From sequence record OR780565.1: DNA of 64,000 nt, one strand, 5' to 3'. The stretch's first letter is position 1. Every line of letters begins with the position of its first letter. The stretch comes from Escherichia phage DCP2. Position numbers and translations under genes: made by a program. The notes beneath the pieces are model-generated. The model searched no databases, was not told the origin of the DNA, and saw only the letters and a list, made by a program, of their open reading frames with translations. Below are positions 3,057 through 39,789 of the stretch, in pieces.

Positions 3057-3712
3057 GCTACTCTCTCAAAATAATAAAATACTGTAGGTTGTGTGTGACT
3101 ATCTAGCGTAACAGTTTGCGCACCTAATAATTGCCAAGTTCCATACCCAGGTTTAGAAGGAGAAATTATTTCCTGTTTGAAAGTAATTCCTTTATCAGAG
3201 TATTGTTCTAAGATATGTTCTTGGTTATCTAAATACTTAACTTGTATTTTATTTCCTATGGTAGGATGGTCTTCAAATGAATCAATTGCAATAAATTTTA
3301 CAACCATTTCCTGTAGAGCTATTCTAACGGCACTAGTAAATTCAATTGAAGTCATTCCATTAGTAGCTTTAACTGGAATACCAAACATGTTAACAATAAC
3401 TGGGTCACCTGATTTGACTGAAGTATCAGTAACAGTTCCTTCAAATGACCAATAGTCGGTTTGTTGCACGCCAGTAGGAGATACGCCGCTTATATTAACT
3501 AATACAGCTCCAACCGGTTGCTCTGCCATATTTCTAACATCATTGATAGCAGATTCTACATTCGGGTCATAAAAACCTTTTGCTATTTGTGAAATTGTTA
3601 CAGCGCCTACTGGCTGATTATTCATAACCGAAATATCATTTTTCTTAGTTCTAAAACCAAGAAAATCTGCTAAGCGGGAAATAACTCCCGCTTTATTATT
3701 AAGTAAACTCAT
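3053..3712 (-). CDS. 11: Baseplate wedge protein gp11 (short tail fibre attachment)
   Basis: ORF 3053-3730; internal Met gives 219 aa as T4 gp11; start overlaps gene 10 stop. Confidence 0.75.
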
Positions 3713-5517
3713 TATGCAATCCTTATCCAACGGTATACAGTAATAGACGGTTGAATATTACTAATATTAGTAGGAGGAGTATGTGAAGAGTTTGTTGTTG
3801 CGTAGTCTTCACGATATTTTGTATATATAGGACCAGTTTCGTCTGGGTCATATTGACAACCTCCAATAATAACTGATCCGTTTTCATCTTCAATTAAAAC
3901 TTTTTCATCAGTTTTAGTCGCAGGAAGATTTGCGTTCTCAAGTGTCACCGATGTTGTTCCAACTGTTCCACCGGCAGTATGTGAAGGATTTCCGCTAGAA
4001 TCTAAATCATTATTGTTTAAAGCAAAGTTTGGATCCGTAACATCATCATTCCATCCTACTAAAACTTGTCCTTTACCAAATAATTTCCATGAACCAAATC
4101 CCATATAAGTCACCGGATTATTTGGATTTATAGCATTTTCATAAATTGAACCTACAGGATAAATGCTATCGAAAATAGATGATATTGAATTATACGTTCT
4201 AGTATAAGAATCAACTTTTTCAACATTTGGCCAACCGATTTTATCAAAATCTGTTAAGGCTACATCACCAGTAACTTCGGTAGATGATCCTTTACTAACA
4301 TAACGGTCATCCGTTAATTCAATGATGTCATCTTTTTCTAAAAGAGTTCCTAAATCATTATTGAACCACGTTATAACGATTATATCGCCTGATTCAAATT
4401 TTCTATCAAATAAAAGACTGGTAGGTTTTCCATCTTCATATTCTATAGAATAATCTGTGTTTGATTCTTTCCATTCGCCACCAAGAGATATACATCCTTC
4501 TTGCGTATCTGAATTAGCGCCTTCGCACAAAAACAGAGGATACCCAGCTGTTCCAGCCTGTTGCTGTAAAATTCCATTAAAACGAACCTCAAGAGAATTA
4601 GGATTAATGGGTTCGCCAGGAATTAATCCAAAAGCTGAAAATGGAATTGATTTCATCGCCGATAAATCAGTAACATAAATGCTTCCTTCTAAAGAAGTCT
4701 TTGATGTTAGTTTTGAATCTAGCACTTTTATTTGGCGTCTTGTATATGAACTTCTCCATTGTGATACACCATCCATAAACGTTTCAATTTGAACAGTGTC
4801 GCCAATATTACAAGGCTGTCTTAACCTAATATTAAATCCATCAAGAGGAATTAATTCTCCTTCATTTTCCCCCGGAGAGCCAAAGTCACTGTTTTCACTA
4901 AATACATCGCCGTAATATAATTCGTTACCGCGGTGTTTTACTCTGATGTTATTGACATTATAACTAGTTCCATGGAAAACATCTAAAAAGTCAGTTTGTC
5001 CTTGAACTTCTACTAAAAATTCTTTGCGAGCTACATTACTAATATCTGAACTAATAATTTTATCAATTTGTTTGTTTTTGACATACTCCCAACGTCCTGG
5101 AGCGCAATAAACGAGCTCTAAATCACTAAATTGAATATTAATTTCAACTGACGATGACGACCCTTTAATTGTATCCCCAGAAGCAGCTACTAAAGTAACT
5201 GGATTAATGTTCCATGTTGCAAATACATCCCTAGCTCTAATTACTTTATTATAATCATTAACAGTTCCTTTAGGAAGTTGTAAAGTTACTCTTCCAGAAG
5301 AGGTATTAATAGCGTATGATTTTCCCCACTTAGCTTTTAATGTTTGACCGGATGAAGCATTATAAGTTTTCCAGGCACCGGCTGAATATGGAACATCTCC
5401 ATCGCCAAGTTCATAATAAAGTTCATCAAAGTTTTCATTTATTTTTATACCACCTTTACGCAGGTAGTCACCGGTACCATCATCAACAACATTACCGATA
5501 TTAATATTTTGTTTCAT
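3712..5517 (-). CDS. 10: Baseplate wedge protein gp10
   Basis: 601-aa ORF; size and synteny match T4 gp10. Confidence 0.8.
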
Positions 5518-16154: not shown

Positions 16155-16981
16155 TGGCTATTTTTCAAATAATTAATGAAAGCACTCCCCAAGTTCCAAA
16201 GGTTAAGCAATCATTAAACGAAAAGAAATGGATTCAGATAGGTCTTGAATACAAAAAGGCCAAAGCAAAAGGAATGACAGGAAAGCAATTTGCTGAAGAA
16301 AGAGGAATCAAATACTCTACGTTTACTTCGGCAATGTCAAAATATGCTTCAGGAATTAAAACAGCTGAAAAGATTCAAAATCTTGAATCAAAACCAATGA
16401 ATAAACTCAATAAGCAAGAAAGACAACTGCTTATGATAAATTCATTCAGACAAACATTGCGTGATAAAATTCGTAATGAAGGCGCAGCAATTAATAATAA
16501 AACCAGAAAGTGGTTTGCTGAAACTATTAAGCAGGTAAAAGGACATAAAGTTGTTCGCCCGCAGCCGGGACGAATATATGCTTTTGCTTATGATGCTAAA
16601 CACAAGGAAACTCTTCCTTATTGGGATAAATTTCCTTTGATAATTTACCTTGGTTTAGGTAAACATAATTTAATGTACGGATTGAACTTGCACTATATTC
16701 CACCTAAAGCTCGTCAACAGTTTCTAGAAGAGCTTTTAAAGCAATATGCAAATACACCTACTATTACTAATAAAACGAAATTGAAAATTGATTGGAGTCA
16801 AGTGAAAGGATTTAGGGGTGCAGACCAAATGATTAAGGCATATATACCTGGTAATATTATGGGTAGCCTAGTTGAAATCGCCCCGAAAGACTGGGCGAAC
16901 GTTGTGTTAATGCCACTCCAAAGCTTCTACTCCAAAGGAAAACGTTTCTCTGCAAACAAAGTTTGGAGCAATGTACGATGA
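16154..16981 (+). CDS. 2: DNA end protector protein gp2
   Basis: 275-aa basic ORF; size and position match T4 gp2. Confidence 0.75.
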
Positions 16982-17637
16982 ATTATGAAAAAATTTATAA
17001 TTCACTAATTGATAGGGCTCGCAATAGAGCCCTTACTGGATATAAAGAAAGACATCATATTATTCCGAAATGTTTAGGCGGTAGTAATGATGCTTCTAAC
17101 TTGGTTGATTTAACTCCAGAAGAGCATTATGTTGCACATCAACTATTAGTAAAAATACACCCAAATTCTTTAAAATTATCTTATGCGGCCATAAAAATGA
17201 CGGTTTCAACTAAATATGTTAGGAGAAATAATAAAGTTTATGGTTGGTTAAAAAGAAAACATGCAAATAATATTTCAAATACACAAACTGGACGAAAATA
17301 TTATAATAATGGTAAAAGATGTATAAAATTGCATGATGGAGATATAATTCCTGAGGGATTTATTTTAGGAAGAGGATGGAGTCCGACACAAGGCACAACT
17401 CATTCTAGAAAAAATGATACATTTAAAAACAAAAAGCTTCAATCTGCTTTAGCTAATAAACGGTGGGAAAAAGAAAAGAAAATAATGTTAGATAACTTTG
17501 GAGTTAGCACTATTGATGAAGCAAAGAAAATTGTTCTTGATTTTAAATCAACTTGTCATCCAAGATATTGGCGAAAGCCAACTTTAGAAAAATTTCCATT
17601 TATGACTTCTGCTCGTTTAAGAAGTCTAATAAATTAA
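16963..17637 (+). mobile_element. Free-standing HNH homing endonuclease-like gene between genes 2 and 3
   Basis: HNH motif ERHHIIPKCLGGSNDASNLVDLTPEEHYVAH; overlaps the 3' end of gene 2. Confidence 0.7.
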
Positions 17638-19810: not shown

Positions 19811-20044
19811 ATGAAAACTTACCAAGAATTTATTGCTGAAACTGCTGATGTAAAAGTTGAGTTTATTTACACTGGCAAGAAAGATAAAATGGGTGAAATG
19901 CCTCATGGAGTTCTTCGTGATGCATTAGATAATTTCGGTCAACTCGCCGCAGAAGATTACGGTGATAAAATTGTTGTTACTGGTCCTGCTGCAGTTATTG
20001 AAAAATGGGCAGCAGAAAATAAATCAATTTTTCGTAAAAAATAA
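19811..20044 (+). CDS. ipI: Internal protein I-like (capsid-targeted, injected)
   Basis: N-terminal MKTYQEFIAE capsid-targeting leader; position between 57B and the tRNA region. Confidence 0.75.
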   Translation: MKTYQEFIAETADVKVEFIYTGKKDKMGEMPHGVLRDALDNFGQLAAEDYGDKIVVTGPAAVIEKWAAENKSIFRKK

Positions 20045-20075
20045 GTTTACTTTTAGATAGGGTAGTGATACTATT
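20045..20075 (+). promoter_or_regulatory. T4-type early promoter
   Basis: gtttac -35 and gtgatactat -10; shares the tgatactattaccctatc block with the 19747 and 39724 promoters. Confidence 0.6.
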
Positions 20076-20102
20076 ACCCTATCTACTACTGAGGAGAATA
20101 AA

Positions 20103-20288
20103 ATGAAACGTTGTGAATTAATTCGAAATGTTGCTATTGCAATTTCTGCTTCCGCTTTTAGTTTTTCAATGTTTGTTGGATTTATATGTGGATTATTGAC
20201 TACAGCAGAAAATGTGTTTTCACTTGTAGTAGCATTTTTAATTGGTTTAATTGCTATTGTTATGGATAAAATTTCTAAAGGTGAATAA
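20103..20288 (+). CDS. Small membrane protein
   Basis: 61-aa ORF with two hydrophobic segments; SD gaggag upstream. Confidence 0.45.
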   Translation: MKRCELIRNVAIAISASAFSFSMFVGFICGLLTTAENVFSLVVAFLIGLIAIVMDKISKGE

Positions 20289-20686
20289 TGAACGTTGAAT
20301 ATTATGTATATGCGGATTACGAAAATAATCCGTCTAAAGATGAAGATAATCGTTTAGGTGTAGATGCTTTCGATTCCCCTGCGGCGGCATGGCAATGGGT
20401 TGAAAGAACCGATATTCCTTACCGTTATATTGAAGTGGTTGACCACGCAGGAAACAAGTATCCTAAGGAAGCATATGTTGCTTCCGGGAAGGTAAATTTC
20501 CTTTTGTTTGCAGGTGATAATTATTATCCCCGTGGTGGGTATACCGATTTAATTGCTAAAGCATTCTCTGAAGATGAACTCCGTGACATTATCAAAGAAA
20601 ATGAAAACAAACCGATGGATTCTAATCGCTTTGATTGGTGGCAAATCGTAAATGCTAATACTCACACTATTGTTGATGAAGGCTGA
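20288..20686 (+). CDS. Hypothetical protein
   Basis: 132-aa ORF, ATGA-coupled to the upstream ORF. Confidence 0.5.
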   Translation: MNVEYYVYADYENNPSKDEDNRLGVDAFDSPAAAWQWVERTDIPYRYIEVVDHAGNKYPKEAYVASGKVNFLLFAGDNYYPRGGYTDLIAKAFSEDELRDIIKENENKPMDSNRFDWWQIVNANTHTIVDEG

Positions 20687-20688
20687 TA

Positions 20689-20976
20689 ATGATTCTTTAT
20701 GCGAAAGTATCATCCATTGAAAATGGATATAAATATGATCAAGACGCGGCTAAAGCTTTGATTGATGATTATGGCATTTTAACATGTTTTGAAGTTGAAA
20801 AGGTTTACATTGACCGTTCATCTTCTCAAGTTAAATTAGTGAAGGAAGAACGTAAATTTAATACAGTAAATTTTGATTTCTTTATTGAAACGGAAAAAGG
20901 TCCTCTTGAATATGATATTTTCAAGAATCCTTTGGGTCTTGAATGCATCGTAAATATGTATTATCATAAATGGTAA
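20689..20976 (+). CDS. Hypothetical protein
   Basis: 95-aa ORF immediately following the previous one. Confidence 0.5.
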   Translation: MILYAKVSSIENGYKYDQDAAKALIDDYGILTCFEVEKVYIDRSSSQVKLVKEERKFNTVNFDFFIETEKGPLEYDIFKNPLGLECIVNMYYHKW

Positions 20977-21042
20977 ATATGCTTTAAGAATTATTTGTTA
21001 TTATTAACTTATATCGCACTGATTAATACCCTCTATCATCAA

Positions 21043-21068
21043 GGGCTCTTTCCTGAGAGCCTTTGTTA
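21043..21068 (+). terminator. Rho-independent terminator-like hairpin
   Basis: ggctct-ttcctg-agagcc stem-loop followed by tttgtt. Confidence 0.4.
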
Positions 21069-21086
21069 ATAATTGGGAATCATATT

Positions 21087-21695
21087 ATGGATACTAAATT
21101 AGCTGAAATTTTTGAAGGAAAACATCCAAATTTTAGTACAGGAAAGCTGAAAGACAAAATAATAAAAGAAAATATTTTTCCATATGAGTGTGCAATTTGT
21201 AAAATTTCAAAATGGCAAAATAAGCATATTGTTCTGCAATTAGACCATATTGATGGAAATAACAAAAATCATCTTAAATCAAATTTAAGATTATTATGTC
21301 CAAATTGCCATTCGCAAACTGATACTTTTGCTGGTAAAAATATTAAAAATAATAAAAAGCGTTATAATGTTAGTGATGAAGAAATTTTAAACGCATTATT
21401 AAATTCGGCTACTATATCATCTGCAATTACTTCATTAGGTTTAAGTAAAGGCGGAAACTATAAAAGATTCATTAAAATTGCTAATGATAATAAATTATAT
21501 CATTTACTGGTAAATATTAATGAAAAGATTTTAACTGATGAAATTTACGAAGAATTAGTTAAAATCGATTATTCTAAATTTGGATGGGTTAGTAAAGCTG
21601 CTAAAATAATAGGTATAAGCCCACAAAAAGCTAGAAAATGGATAGAACGAAAATGTCCAGAATTGATAGAACAATCTTTTTCACGTAATAAATAA
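21087..21695 (+). mobile_element. Free-standing HNH homing endonuclease-like gene next to the tRNA array
   Basis: Cys-box plus HNH motif: CAICKI...LDHIDGNNKNH...NLRLLCPNCH. Confidence 0.7.
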
Positions 21696-21701
21696 TATAG
21701 A

Positions 21702-21788
21702 GCGAGAATGGTCAAATTGGTAAAGGCACAGCACTTAAAATGCTGCGGAATGATTTCCTTGTGGGTTCGAGTCCCACTTCTCGCACCA
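21702..21788 (+). tRNA. tRNA-Leu (anticodon TAA), CCA encoded
   Basis: Acceptor GCGAGAA/TTCTCGC, anticodon loop CTTAAAA, long variable arm, T-arm GGTTCGAGTCC. Confidence 0.85.
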
Positions 21789-21793
21789 AATTT

Positions 21794-21867
<74 letters not shown>

Positions 21868-21876
21868 ATTTAATTT

Positions 21877-21950
21877 ACTCCGTGTAGCTCAGTTTGGTAG
21901 AGCGCCTGATTTGGGATCAGGAGGTCCAAGGTTCAAATCCTTGTATGGAG
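21877..21950 (+). tRNA. tRNA-Pro (anticodon TGG)
   Basis: Anticodon stem-loop CCTGA-TTTGGGA-TCAGG, T-arm GGTTCAAATCC. Confidence 0.8.
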
Positions 21951-21952
21951 AC

Positions 21953-22043
21953 TGGAGGCGTGGCAGAGTGGTTTAATGCACCGGTCTTGAAAACCGGCAG
22001 TCGCTCCGGCGACTCATAGGTTCAAATCCTATCGCCTCCGCCA
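21953..22043 (+). tRNA. tRNA-Ser (anticodon TGA), CCA encoded
   Basis: Anticodon stem-loop CCGGT-CTTGAAA-ACCGG, long variable arm, T-arm GGTTCAAATCC. Confidence 0.85.
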
Positions 22044-22048
22044 GTTTT

Positions 22049-22124
22049 GCTGATTTAGCTCAGTAGGTAGAGCAACTCACTTGTAATGAGAAGGTCGGCG
22101 GTTCGATTCCGTCAATCAGCACCA
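22049..22124 (+). tRNA. tRNA-Thr (anticodon TGT), CCA encoded
   Basis: Acceptor GCTGATT/AATCAGC, anticodon loop CTTGTAA, T-arm GGTTCGATTCC. Confidence 0.85.
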
Positions 22125-22125
22125 A

Positions 22126-22200
22126 GGCCCTGTAGCTGGAAGGTTCAAGCAAGCGACTCATAATCGCCAGATGGTGGTTCAATTCCACCCAGGGCCACCA
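22126..22200 (+). tRNA. tRNA with anticodon CAT (Ile by analogy with T4, or Met), CCA encoded
   Basis: Acceptor GGCCCTG/CAGGGCC, anticodon loop CTCATAA, T-arm GGTTCAATTCC. Confidence 0.8.
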
Positions 22201-22209
22201 AATTAATTT

Positions 22210-22296
22210 GGGGAGTTATCCCGTAGAGGTAGCGGTGTGGACTGTAAATCCATTGTCATTGCGACTCGGGTGGTTCGACTCCACCACTCCCCACCA
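22210..22296 (+). tRNA. tRNA-Tyr (anticodon GTA), CCA encoded
   Basis: Acceptor GGGGAGT/ACTCCCC, anticodon loop CTGTAAA, long variable arm, T-arm GGTTCGACTCC. Confidence 0.8.
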
Positions 22297-22300
22297 ATTT

Positions 22301-22375
22301 GGATGTGTAGCTCAATGGCAGAGCGATCGCCTGTTAAGCGATTGGTTATAGGTTCGAATCCTATCACGTCCGCCA
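22301..22375 (+). tRNA. tRNA-Asn (anticodon GTT), CCA encoded
   Basis: Anticodon stem-loop TCGC-CTGTTAA-GCGA, T-arm GGTTCGAATCC. Confidence 0.85.
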
Positions 22376-22489
22376 AATTTGTGACAACTGTCACATTAAT
22401 ATCTACTTGACGCGATTATAGGGGTTGAACTGATCACTCTTCTCTTAATTTCGTGTGAAGACATCTTGATTGTTGGAGTAGGTATTAAT

Positions 22490-22565
22490 GTGGCCGTAGT
22501 TCAGTTGGTAGAACTCGAGATTGTGATTCTCGTAGTCATGGGTTCGACTCCCATCGGTCACCCCA
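22490..22565 (+). tRNA. tRNA-His (anticodon GTG), CCA encoded
   Basis: Extra 5' G pairing with discriminator C, anticodon stem-loop CGAGA-TTGTGAT-TCTCG, T-arm GGTTCGACTCC. Confidence 0.8.
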
Positions 22566-22569
22566 ATTA

Positions 22570-22645
22570 CGGGGCATAGCTCAGAAGGAAGAGCAAGGAC
22601 CTTCTAAGTCCTAGGTCGTAGGTTCGATCCCTACTGCCTCGACCA
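22570..22645 (+). tRNA. tRNA-Arg (anticodon TCT), CCA encoded
   Basis: Anticodon stem-loop GGAC-CTTCTAA-GTCC, T-arm GGTTCGATCCC. Confidence 0.85.
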
Positions 22646-22663
22646 ATTATAAGTGAGGAAAAT

Positions 22664-23014
22664 ATGAAAGGTAATGTTTATTTAGTAGTTCATGATTTAA
22701 CATTCTATTTTAATCATAATGATACTGTTATTTCTGAACGTGTAATTAATTTGCTTTATCAGCATGCAGATTATGTTTATGTCGAAAACGAATATGGTCA
22801 TTGGCAATTTCTCAAAAATCGTTCATTTGGTTTAGATGGTTACGAATATTTTGATCGTAAAGACCTTTTAGATACAATTCCGTTATCTACACAATATCAA
22901 AATCATAAGTCTTTACATAAATGCCGGCTAATTCGAAATGCTGAATCCGCGTATGAAGCAATTGATTTGTGGCGTAAACGCCGTGAATATATTGATTCTT
23001 TAAAAGAATATTAA
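22664..23014 (+). CDS. Hypothetical protein
   Basis: 116-aa ORF with SD gaggaaaat upstream, directly after tRNA-Arg. Confidence 0.5.
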   Translation: MKGNVYLVVHDLTFYFNHNDTVISERVINLLYQHADYVYVENEYGHWQFLKNRSFGLDGYEYFDRKDLLDTIPLSTQYQNHKSLHKCRLIRNAESAYEAIDLWRKRREYIDSLKEY

Positions 23015-23178
23015 GAAACCGGGTCGCTACCGGTAAGTCGTCGGACTGATGTTCCCTGGAGTATAGTTTCCTCCCACAGTTTTACTGTGTTCTGGCTCTT
23101 TACTATCACAGCAGAAACGGCGCACCGAATTATCGATTCGAGGAAATATCTTTGCCGTAAGCCGAGTAGCGTTTTTGA

Positions 23179-23270
23179 CGGAACGTTCGGATATGGTCGA
23201 GATATGGCCTTTTAAAAATATTGAGTAGCGTCAACTACTTAATAACCGGGTTCGAATCCCGGCGTTTCGT
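23179..23270 (+). ncRNA. Candidate tRNA-like structured RNA in a GC-rich non-coding stretch
   Basis: Canonical T-arm CCGGG-TTCGAAT-CCCGG; flanks CGGAACG/CGTTTCG can form a 7-bp acceptor stem; no clean D or anticodon arm found. Confidence 0.25.
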
Positions 23271-23322
23271 ACAAACACTTGCCTTAGCAGGTGGAACCCC
23301 GACAAGGTTGCCGCAAGGCTTA

Positions 23323-23349
23323 GCCCCGACCGAAAGGTTGGGGCTTTTT
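23323..23349 (+). terminator. Rho-independent terminator
   Basis: gccccgacc-gaaa-ggttggggc hairpin followed by ttttt; identical copy at 23880-23906. Confidence 0.7.
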
Positions 23350-23351
23350 GG

Positions 23352-23359
23352 TATAAATA
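23352..23359 (+). promoter_or_regulatory. Late promoter TATAAATA upstream of an internal-protein-like gene
   Basis: Exact TATAAATA 39 nt upstream of the ATG at 23398. Confidence 0.5.
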
Positions 23360-23397
23360 TTAGTATATTAAATCTACAAATTAAAACAGGAAATAAG

Positions 23398-23871
23398 ATG
23401 AAATCATATACTCAATTTTTAAATGAAGCGGTGTTAAATGAAGCATCTAGCACCGAAATTCAAGCTGTTGCAAAAGCTGCCATTGCCGCGGGTAAATATT
23501 CCTATAAAGATGCTTCTGATGAATCGCGATTCCAGTTTGCACGCGACATGAAAGCGGAAGGATTTACGGGAAATGCAGTTAGTATGGCCTGGAAAAGTTT
23601 AGTTGCTACTGGCGCTGCTTTTGCAAAGGCTTCGGGTAAACCTGCTCCTAAAGCAGATCCTAAAGCGGCACAAGAAAAAAATATCGTTAAAGGAATTATC
23701 GCTAAATATGAAGCTATCCTTAAAGAGCTTTTAGTAATCAAAACCGAAGGCCAAAAGTTAGCCCGTGCTTATAGTTTCAAAGATAATCCACATGTTCACT
23801 CTCTTGAGTATGTTGAAGACATCCAAAAAATTATTAAAGACCGCATTTGGTCTGCTAAACAAATCAAATGA
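23398..23871 (+). CDS. Internal-protein-like capsid-targeted protein
   Basis: Starts MKSYTQFLNEA (capsid-targeting leader pattern); the ORF-track start at 23221 is rejected. Confidence 0.6.
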   Translation: MKSYTQFLNEAVLNEASSTEIQAVAKAAIAAGKYSYKDASDESRFQFARDMKAEGFTGNAVSMAWKSLVATGAAFAKASGKPAPKADPKAAQEKNIVKGIIAKYEAILKELLVIKTEGQKLARAYSFKDNPHVHSLEYVEDIQKIIKDRIWSAKQIK

Positions 23872-23879
23872 CATTCTTA

Positions 23880-23906
23880 GCCCCGACCGAAAGGTTGGGG
23901 CTTTTT
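23880..23906 (+). terminator. Rho-independent terminator (second copy)
   Basis: Same gccccgacc-gaaa-ggttggggc-ttttt element as at 23323. Confidence 0.7.
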
Positions 23907-23996
23907 AGTTTGAATCACTCGGATAACGCTGTTACGGATAGTAACAAAGTAATAAATAATTAATAACCAACCGATAAATTATTTCAAGGATTTTAA

Positions 23997-24560
23997 ATGA
24001 AAACCTATGCCGAATTTTTAACCGAAGCAGCAAAATTACCATCTGAAGCAGATCTTACTAAAGTATTCTTCCAATTGGACCCAAAAGACCGCGGCGATTT
24101 TCTTAAGTGGAAAGCTAAAGCTATTGAAATGTACAACATCGATAATAGTTCTTTTACAATGAGTCAAGAAAATAAATTCAATAAAGCATTTTTCAAAATT
24201 TCTAAGAAATTGGCATCTGGCGCTCAGGTTCCTAAATCTGTGTTAGCTACTCCTGAACGCGCACCTGTTAAAATTTCTAAGAATATGTTCGACACTAAAA
24301 AATACGTTAATGCTTTGAATAAAGCTCTTGATGCATTGGATGATGCAAAGAAGGCAGCCCGCGATCTTCAAGACGTGTACACCGATTTTGACCGCAAAAC
24401 TAAAGGTTCTATTTCAAATAGCGAACGCAATAGTGTAAGTGTTTATTCTGATAGCCTTGATGTTCTTGGCGATGCGTATACTGAAATTAAAAATCGTATT
24501 AACACTGCATCTAAGCTAAAAGCTGCTGCAGAAGCTATAATAAGTAAACTAGGTAAATAA
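23997..24560 (+). CDS. Internal-protein-like capsid-targeted protein
   Basis: Starts MKTYAEFLTEA; 187 aa, Lys/Ala-rich. Confidence 0.6.
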   Translation: MKTYAEFLTEAAKLPSEADLTKVFFQLDPKDRGDFLKWKAKAIEMYNIDNSSFTMSQENKFNKAFFKISKKLASGAQVPKSVLATPERAPVKISKNMFDTKKYVNALNKALDALDDAKKAARDLQDVYTDFDRKTKGSISNSERNSVSVYSDSLDVLGDAYTEIKNRINTASKLKAAAEAIISKLGK

Positions 24561-28031: not shown

Positions 28032-28834
<803 letters not shown>

Positions 28835-39273: not shown

Positions 39274-39310
39274 ACAACTATCAAAACAAACACTTAAACG
39301 GAAAAACAAA

Positions 39311-39460
39311 ATGAAAATTACACCAATTGAAGTAAAAAAGTTGATTGACACAGAAGAAATTTCAGAGTGTTTTGAAAGTTTCTTAGAAGATGCAACTGAA
39401 GATAATGCAGTTTATCTCGCTCAGAAAATTATCGAAACTTATTTGGAGAAGAATCAATGA
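39311..39460 (+). CDS. Small acidic hypothetical protein
   Basis: 49-aa ORF downstream of the promoter, coupled to the next ORF. Confidence 0.35.
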   Translation: MKITPIEVKKLIDTEEISECFESFLEDATEDNAVYLAQKIIETYLEKNQ

Positions 39461-39720
39461 CAGTTTACGTAGATGTTTTAATGAATCATGGATGGAAACT
39501 TCGCGGTCATCCAACTAAAAATTGTCATATGTTCACTGATGGAGATATTGAAGAGCTTCATGAAATGGCAGAAGCAATAGGAATGAAACGTTCTTGGTTT
39601 CAAGATAAACGCATTAAACATTATGACTTACACGCTCGCCGACGCCAAAAAGCTGTAGAACTTGGAGCTGTAGAAGTATCTCGCCGTGAAGCAGTAAAAA
39701 TTTGGCGAACGTTAAAATAA
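39457..39720 (+). CDS. Hypothetical basic protein
   Basis: 87-aa ORF MTVYVDVLMNHGWKLRGHPTKNCHMFTDGDIEELHEMAEAIGMKRSWFQ...; no CxxC, so not the thioredoxin. Confidence 0.45.
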   Translation: MTVYVDVLMNHGWKLRGHPTKNCHMFTDGDIEELHEMAEAIGMKRSWFQDKRIKHYDLHARRRQKAVELGAVEVSRREAVKIWRTLK

Positions 39721-39723
39721 ATT

Positions 39724-39753
39724 GTTTACAGAAGGGTAGTAGTGTGATACTAT
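39724..39753 (+). promoter_or_regulatory. T4-type early promoter
   Basis: gtttac -35 and gtgatactat -10. Confidence 0.6.
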
Positions 39754-39789
39754 TACCCTATCAAAACAAATGTGAGATTGGAGAATAAA

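Follow-up and report, generated by a model that had tools for sequence, protein, structure and literature searches.

The HNH Gene and Its Product

The window, that is, the whole 64,000-nt stretch analysed here (OR780565.1, Escherichia phage DCP2), belongs to a Tequatrovirus, a T4-like phage, and its positions 20000-23200 share 99.1% identity with Shigella phage S2_01 and 97.7% with Escherichia phage ACG-C40. Directly upstream of its tRNA genes lies an ORF of the homing-endonuclease type (21087-21695, + strand), which encodes 202 amino acids plus a stop and contains the motifs CAIC (residues 35-38), LDHIDGNNKNH (52-62) and NLRLLCPNCH (66-75). Alignment of homologue N-termini places the start at the ATG at 21087 and not at the upstream TTG at 21063. 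The stop codon, which ends at 21695, is followed by TATAGA (21696-21701) and then by tRNA-Leu(UAA), which begins at 21702. The ORF with its cysteine box and HNH motif, and the 6-nt gap between it and the first tRNA gene, were both recovered as the initial annotation had described them.

The catalytic core with its zinc site, of the HNH (His-Me finger) type, spans 21174-21320 (+) and comprises C35, C38, H54, N66, C71, C74 and H75, which preserve the pattern CxxC…DH…N…CxxCH intact and are invariant in an alignment of 37 homologues. The predicted structure (pLDDT 90.9) contains the beta-beta-alpha core that defines the HNH/His-Me finger fold. By this conservation, the seven residues are assigned to a zinc-stabilised H-N-H core, and the protein is a predicted nuclease. 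Family searches agree: PHROG 14736 (“HNH endonuclease”) matches the protein end to end (E = 5e-124) and a further PHROG HNH family matches with E = 2.5e-29, while the Pfam HNH family PF01844 scores below threshold (17.3 bits vs. a gathering cut-off of 21.4), although relatives of the protein carry precomputed PF01844 matches. The family-domain search returned no GIY-YIG match, and a scan of IMG/VR for protein relatives yielded pattern matches only, with no relative confirmed.

Two helical modules follow the core. The middle module (21369-21491, +), defined by alignment and of the VSDEEIL…GL..GGNYxR type, contains helices at residues 97-134 with high pLDDT and is a predicted DNA-binding helix bundle; it has no match among curated families, and in relatives it stands at the N- or the C-terminal end. 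The C-terminal module, IDYSKFGWVSKAAKIIGISPQKARKWI (21558-21656, +), is of the helix-turn-helix type, with sub-threshold Pfam helix-turn-helix matches over residues 164-192 and helices at 167-189, and is conserved in relatives, including F-TflIV of phage T5. The alignment shows the order of the two modules to be shuffled among relatives. The addition of two helix-turn-helix-type modules in a shuffled arrangement is usual in site-specific homing enzymes. BLASTP aligns the protein to T5 F-TflIV (hegA) with 35% identity over 170 aa (E = 2e-22), and tblastn covers 84% of the query, which identifies F-TflIV, by sequence, as the closest characterised relative. Many records already annotate the gene as “HNH endonuclease,” and several GenBank records name it after F-TflIV.

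The Operon Leader

The tRNA operon has a promoter-like site of the middle (MotA-box) type at 20980-21004 (+), which consists of TGCTTTA (20980-20986), a 12-nt spacer and TATTAT (20999-21004). It lies upstream of the inserted DNA, is common to phages without the HNH gene, and a matching 27 nt in phage Lutter is annotated “promoter.” We take the site to fit the T4 middle-promoter consensus and regard it as a putative promoter. Directly before the HNH ORF the promoter-like sequence TATAAATA is absent, though it is present there in many relatives.

Between this site and the ORF, the leader contains a stable hairpin (21040-21065, +) with an 11-bp stem (-16.3 kcal/mol, z = -4.5, with 0 of 200 shuffles folding as well). 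The initial annotation had described a terminator-like hairpin before the ORF. The hairpin itself is confirmed, but a simple terminator scan does not call it, because the T-run that follows (TTTGTTAATAATT) is weak. With loop variants it occurs in T4, in Yersinia phage ZN18 and in all carrier phages, and since T4 and other phages without the HNH gene also have it, the hairpin belongs to the leader of the tRNA operon and was rejected as a part of the endonuclease cassette.

A Cassette in Place of tRNA-Gln

The flanks of the HNH gene in the window are 99.7% identical to those in ZN18, in which the same slot is occupied by tRNA-Gln(UUG) directly abutting tRNA-Leu; in T4 the slot likewise holds tRNA-Gln next to tRNA-Leu. 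Alignment with these two phages delimits a 619-bp cassette (21083-21701, +) that stands in place of tRNA-Gln nucleotides 10-74, with tRNA-Leu unaltered. Of tRNA-Gln there remains a 9-nt 5' remnant, TGGGAATCA, at 21074-21082 (+), corresponding to TGGGAATTA in the intact genes. The GGGA of this remnant, located 7 nt ahead of the start codon, is the probable ribosome-binding site of the HNH ORF. The junctions (TTGGGAAT[T/C]A|TATTATG) are identical in all nine Tequatrovirus carrier loci examined, and the G+C content of the cassette is 25.2%, compared with 34.9% for the whole window.

An Rfam search of 20500-24200 found only tRNAs, with no group I intron, leader or other match at E <= 0.1. As the 3' part of tRNA-Gln is absent, the HNH gene does not lie inside a split gene; it is free-standing, being neither intron- nor intein-borne. 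The tRNA array that follows (21702-22645, +; ARAGORN and Rfam) contains ten genes, in the order Leu, Gly, Pro, Ser, Thr, Met(CAU), Tyr, Asn, His and Arg. The presence of the HNH gene coincides exactly with the absence of a single tRNA gene, tRNA-Gln. The initial annotation had taken the different endonuclease type and the altered tRNA content of this region as signs of endonuclease-driven reshuffling, but the HNH gene accounts for the loss of tRNA-Gln only; the Tyr, Asn and His differences from T4 lie at the segB site. No description of the replacement of tRNA-Gln was found in the literature searched.

Distribution, Divergence and Selection

The whole HNH gene is present in 63 of 50,697 phage records, in one copy each and with 98.4-99.7% nucleotide identity, and the intact Trna.2/tRNA-Gln/tRNA-Leu site in 446, so that its frequency at the locus is about 12%. 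Most close relatives, T4 included, do not have it. A universally present gene with a conserved flank had been named at the outset as the observation that would count against an endonuclease-driven history, and the contrast of 63 records with 446 that retain tRNA-Gln shows that the gene is not of this kind. Comparison of T-even tRNA regions, which had been proposed as a check, finds a patchy gene occupying the tRNA-Gln slot.

The gene has diverged less than its surroundings. In four of five genome pairs that compare the window with other carriers, synonymous divergence is 0.017-0.077 for the HNH gene, as against 0.09-0.18 for Trna.2, 0.55-0.62 for Trna.3 and 0.10-0.25 for the downstream ORF beyond the array, which places the HNH gene 1.2- to 36-fold below the flanking genes. 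The exception is the closest pair (the window and ACG-C40), with zero synonymous divergence in the upstream genes Trna.4 and Trna.3 and 0.060 in the HNH gene. Trna.3 occurs as two allele types that are 70% identical, each of which is found in both carriers and non-carriers.

Among eight 609-bp alleles compared, the segregating sites in the HNH ORF number 17 synonymous and 3 non-synonymous (binomial P = 3e-10 against neutrality), and in all nine Tequatrovirus copies that were translated the reading frame is intact. Judged by these substitution counts, the ORF is under purifying selection, with its function retained. The patchy distribution, the low divergence, the AT-richness and the selection together are consistent with a functional endonuclease gene that recently passed horizontally between diverged Tequatroviruses.

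Haplotypes of the hairpin loop, about 30 bp upstream, are common to carriers and non-carriers, which implies that co-conversion tracts are very short or were erased by later recombination. Co-conversion tracts were uninformative as a guide to the cleavage site, as the tRNA genes on the right side are ~100% conserved everywhere and the haplotypes on the left are shuffled within 30 bp of the junction.

Homologues in the tRNA Clusters of Other Phages

The protein has roughly 5,500 homologues. The relatives used to survey genomic context were picked by similarity and sequence length, and not by context. In 13 of 14 independent contexts the homologue lies in or beside a tRNA cluster, its stop codon often 1-9 nt from a tRNA gene or overlapping it; in the 14th the sequence ends too near the homologue for the tRNA neighbourhood to be judged. 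The Klebsiella-phage relative (68% identity) is located 14 nt after an intact tRNA-Gln and, compared with the non-carrier Klebsiella phage VAC36, replaces tRNA-Asn. Two Erwinia-phage-like contigs (58% identity) show the same synteny, with tRNAs that start 220-515 nt downstream. In three metagenomic phages (41-45% identity) the stop shares nucleotides with tRNA-Lys or precedes tRNA-Asp by 6 nt. The homologue lies 23 nt after tRNA-Ile2 in T5 (hegA), 65 nt after tRNA-Leu in jumbo phage SE_PL, 9 nt before tRNA-Gly in Bacillus phage Chewbecca, and between tRNA-His and tRNA-Ser in Karamvirus EnA02 (gaps of 19 nt and 1 nt). Edwardsiella phage PEi20 has a decayed, unannotated HNH remnant (1501-1617 of the compared locus segment) in a 468-nt gap between tRNA-Leu and tRNA-Met. 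Of three more distant members, the first precedes tRNA-Leu(UAA) by 6 nt and the second overlaps a tRNA gene of that type; in the third, the tRNAs begin ~525 nt downstream. The F-TflIV-related HNH clade habitually resides in phage tRNA clusters.

Other Endonuclease-Type Genes in the T-even tRNA Locus

The HNH gene is not the only gene of its kind at this locus. In T4, segB occupies the slots of the Tyr, Asn and His tRNAs, which the DCP2 window has. Phage BP32 carries both segB and the HNH gene; its SegB (3758-4423 of the compared segment) is flanked by tRNA-Tyr and tRNA-Arg and takes the place of tRNA-Asn, the 114-nt spacer and tRNA-His. In PBM-1, a chimeric endonuclease (3328-3936 of the compared segment) replaces tRNA-Pro and ends 6 nt before tRNA-Ser; its GIY-YIG domain is 82% identical to residues 1-117 of T4 SegB, and is followed by a different C-terminus that contains NUMOD3 and a helix-turn-helix. 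In OE5505, a 160-aa ORF (3592-4074 of the compared segment) replaces tRNA-Thr and leaves its first 13 nt, a layout equal to that of the HNH gene and tRNA-Gln; the ORF has no family match, and its C-terminus is helix-turn-helix-like (…INVSHTQARKFL…). The seg cassettes of BP32 and PBM-1 have an identical 41-nt leader, which follows CCAATTTA at the 3' ends of two different tRNAs. This arrangement suggests that tRNA ends and spacers, being repeated, act as landing homology.

Endonuclease-driven reshuffling of the tRNA locus, as the initial annotation had proposed, is thereby well supported in comparative terms: in addition to the exchange of tRNA-Gln for the HNH gene, other endonuclease-type genes replace tRNA-Pro, tRNA-Thr and the segment from tRNA-Asn to tRNA-His.

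Two closer relationships were considered and rejected. The HNH gene is not a direct replacement of SegB, which is located in a different slot and co-occurs with it in BP32. A helix-turn-helix shared with the SegB chimera of PBM-1 (24 aa, E = 2e-4 in a single comparison) was judged too weak a match, and comparison of the HNH protein with T4 SegB, DNA-binding domain included, found no similarity.

Variation of other kinds was also observed. Shigella phage CT01 (OK018184.1) has a tandem duplication of the Leu-Gly-Pro-Ser-Thr-Met block (1672-2746 of the compared segment), giving 16 tRNA genes, which resembles the SegB-driven amplifications that have been described (PMC13096335). Phage teqhad has an extra 171-aa ORF between Trna.2 and the HNH gene (1886-2401 of the compared segment), absent in the window and with no Pfam match.

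Comparison With Characterized Systems

F-TflIV (hegA) is cited as an HNH site-specific endonuclease of the T5 tRNA gene region (Akulenko et al., 2004, as cited in PMC2330249 and PMC5714182). The DCP2 protein is homologous to it over the HNH core and the C-terminal helix-turn-helix, and both genes are free-standing in tRNA clusters (23 nt after tRNA-Ile2 in T5 and 6 nt before tRNA-Leu in DCP2). However, the hegA product is 227 aa long, has an N-terminal LuxR-type helix-turn-helix and is without the middle GGNYxR module, and T5 belongs to a different virus family. The two genes are not orthologues, and the T5 target and cleavage chemistry are not transferable to DCP2.

T4 SegB shares the locus. 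Like the HNH gene, segB is free-standing, embedded among tRNA genes and co-oriented with them (PMC2330249; PMC13096335), its presence is polymorphic among T-even phages, and tRNA genes are missing where it sits. The folds are unrelated (GIY-YIG vs. HNH), and SegB is located between tRNA-Ile or tRNA-Tyr and tRNA-Arg, as opposed to the Gln slot. For SegB both activity and homing have been demonstrated, whereas for the DCP2 HNH gene both are predicted. SegB recognizes the conserved T-psi-C motif of tRNA genes (PMC2330249; PMC13096335), and by analogy this is a plausible model for how the HNH family might find tRNA arrays.

The Mob-type HNH enzymes of T4 and SegH/Hef are likewise products of free-standing phage homing genes, which undergo intronless homing with co-conversion of the flanks (PMC2988022). 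SegH and Hef replace mobC and mobE in T4 relatives, and the same intergenic slots hold different endonuclease genes (PMC2988022; Sandegren et al., 2005, as cited in PMC13096335). The Mob proteins belong to HNH subfamilies other than that of the DCP2 protein, and the mob, segH and hef genes sit between protein-coding genes and replace none, whereas the DCP2 HNH gene deletes a tRNA gene. By contrast with terminase-associated HNH proteins, the DCP2 gene is neither beside terminase genes nor universal in its lineage.

Proposed Homing and Alternative Explanations

The ORF is, in our view, probably a free-standing gene for an HNH homing endonuclease of the clade that includes T5 F-TflIV, residing in the tRNA-Gln slot that heads the T-even tRNA operon. 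Probably without a promoter of its own, the gene would be transcribed from the middle promoter of the operon as the 5' segment of the tRNA precursor and translated from the ribosome-binding site that the tRNA-Gln remnant provides, and cleavage by RNase P at tRNA-Leu would free the mRNA and set its 3' end. In a mixed infection, the enzyme would nick or cut the allele without the HNH gene, in or near tRNA-Gln or the Gln-Leu junction, and recombinational repair off the carrier genome would convert the tRNA-Gln allele into the HNH allele. The carrier genome would be immune owing to the deletion of the target, and the price for the phage would be the loss of one dispensable tRNA. By analogy, intronless homing is the most likely mechanism, as it has been shown for SegB in the same tRNA region (PMC2330249) and for other free-standing endonucleases of T4 (PMC2988022).

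The deletion of tRNA-Gln in carriers points to this gene or to the Gln-Leu junction as the target. The idea is weakened by the Klebsiella-phage orthologue, which keeps tRNA-Gln and replaces tRNA-Asn, and this retention, together with the shuffling of the left haplotypes within ~30 bp, makes a generic tRNA-gene target possible, similar to the T-psi-C motif of SegB. In a wider and tentative reading, which we regard as rather unlikely, the clade would recognize a generic feature of tRNA genes and hop between array slots of unrelated phages, replacing one tRNA each time (Gln here, Asn in the Klebsiella phage), and its breaks in the repetitive array may also drive the loss, duplication or amplification of tRNA genes against tRNA-cleaving defences.

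Other explanations compete with homing or complement it. The recombination of T-even phages alone could shuffle the alleles, and strong purifying selection on a gene at a frequency of only ~12% could mean that the gene benefits the phage. The nuclease might be kept for such a benefit, either to exclude the tRNA-region markers of competitors or because SegB-like breaks drive tRNA duplication, loss or amplification against tRNA-cleaving defences, a reading that is compatible with homing and that we hold to be distinctly unlikely. In its favour, SegB drives the amplification of tRNA-Tyr to escape Septu, and the authors ask whether HNH endonucleases act in the same way (PMC13096335); the targets of retron Eco2 include the host tRNA-Gln (PMC12916289); and the tandem duplication in CT01 is a natural example affecting the tRNA block from Leu to Met. 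CT01, however, has an intact tRNA-Gln and no ORF of the size of the HNH gene at the slot, none of the nine carrier loci examined shows a duplication, and carriage of the gene removes a tRNA and adds none.

Very improbable, in our assessment, is an old vertical resident, lost on many occasions and replaced again by tRNA-Gln through recombination, that is now immobile and possibly inactive. The divergent orthologues (58-68% identity) in the same syntenic neighbourhood of other T4-like genera would suit such a history, as would the decayed remnant in PEi20; it accords poorly with a synonymous divergence below that of the flanks in four of five pairs, with a single junction and at least 98.4% identity across all Tequatrovirus copies, with the intact ORFs and the rarity of non-synonymous changes, and with the replacement of different tRNA genes by orthologues in different genera. 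That the protein has a role other than homing, whether in packaging together with terminase or as a repair enzyme or resolvase, is scarcely credible: HNH domains perform such tasks in other phages, for example in HK97 gp74 (PMC10448857), but no terminase genes are nearby, the neighbours being Trna.2-4 and tRNAs, and the protein has two predicted helix-turn-helix-type modules, as is typical of site-specific homing enzymes. Nor can the function be essential, since most close relatives live without the gene.

Significance

Phage tRNA arrays are now seen as counter-defence loci, and SegB has been shown to remodel them (PMC13096335). The same study leaves the question whether HNH endonucleases also remodel tRNA arrays, and the DCP2 HNH gene sits in the same locus. 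With at least four different endonuclease-type genes, each replacing a different tRNA gene, such exchanges explain much of the variation in T-even tRNA content. If the family does target tRNA genes generically, it would represent a second, independent nuclease lineage specialized on tRNA arrays, and if HNH breaks remodel the arrays, they would provide an HNH-type counterpart of the recently described SegB mechanism. The gene is also present in the public model phage BASEL Bas37/KarlGJung, and with tRNA-Gln as the natural “empty” allele, experiments can directly address its homing, its recognition of a target and its influence on the tRNA repertoire.

Other Features of the Window

The initial annotation had counted the tRNA-locus gene as the second HNH gene, and another HNH ORF is indeed located upstream, at about 16978-17637 (+), in the stretch 16963-17637. 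It carries the motif …ERHHIIPK…GGSNDASNLVDLTPEEHYVAH…, has 30% G+C and belongs to a different HNH subfamily. Compared with phage KarlGJung, the window has a 668-bp insertion (16967-17634) here, placed between the gp2 and gp3 homologues, and the ORF lies within it. A phmmer search within the window found no paralogue of the tRNA-locus HNH protein, and the upstream ORF is not detectably related to it.

The 114-nt spacer between tRNA-Asn and tRNA-His (22376-22489, +) matches neither a tRNA nor any Rfam family and is predicted to fold stably (-32.7 kcal/mol, z = -4.4, a stability reached by 0 of 200 shuffles). Homologues are present in 355 phage records from several T4-like genera, almost always unannotated, and each of the five copies from other genera that were checked for context lies directly 5' of tRNA-His. 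Across six copies, the 14-bp closing stem keeps its pairing, with compensatory changes at three pairs. The spacer is therefore a candidate for an undescribed structured RNA or a leader of tRNA-His.

Beyond the array, 23015-23260 (+) is homologous to rnaD and rnaC of T4 (89% identity), the stable RNAs called “species 2 and 1.” In T4, rnaD and rnaC directly follow tRNA-Arg, whereas in DCP2 a 116-aa ORF (22664-23014, +), for which no Pfam match was found, intervenes. Two more insertions relative to KarlGJung are located at 28552-28834 and 39285-39777, the second of which holds an 87-aa ORF (39457-39720).
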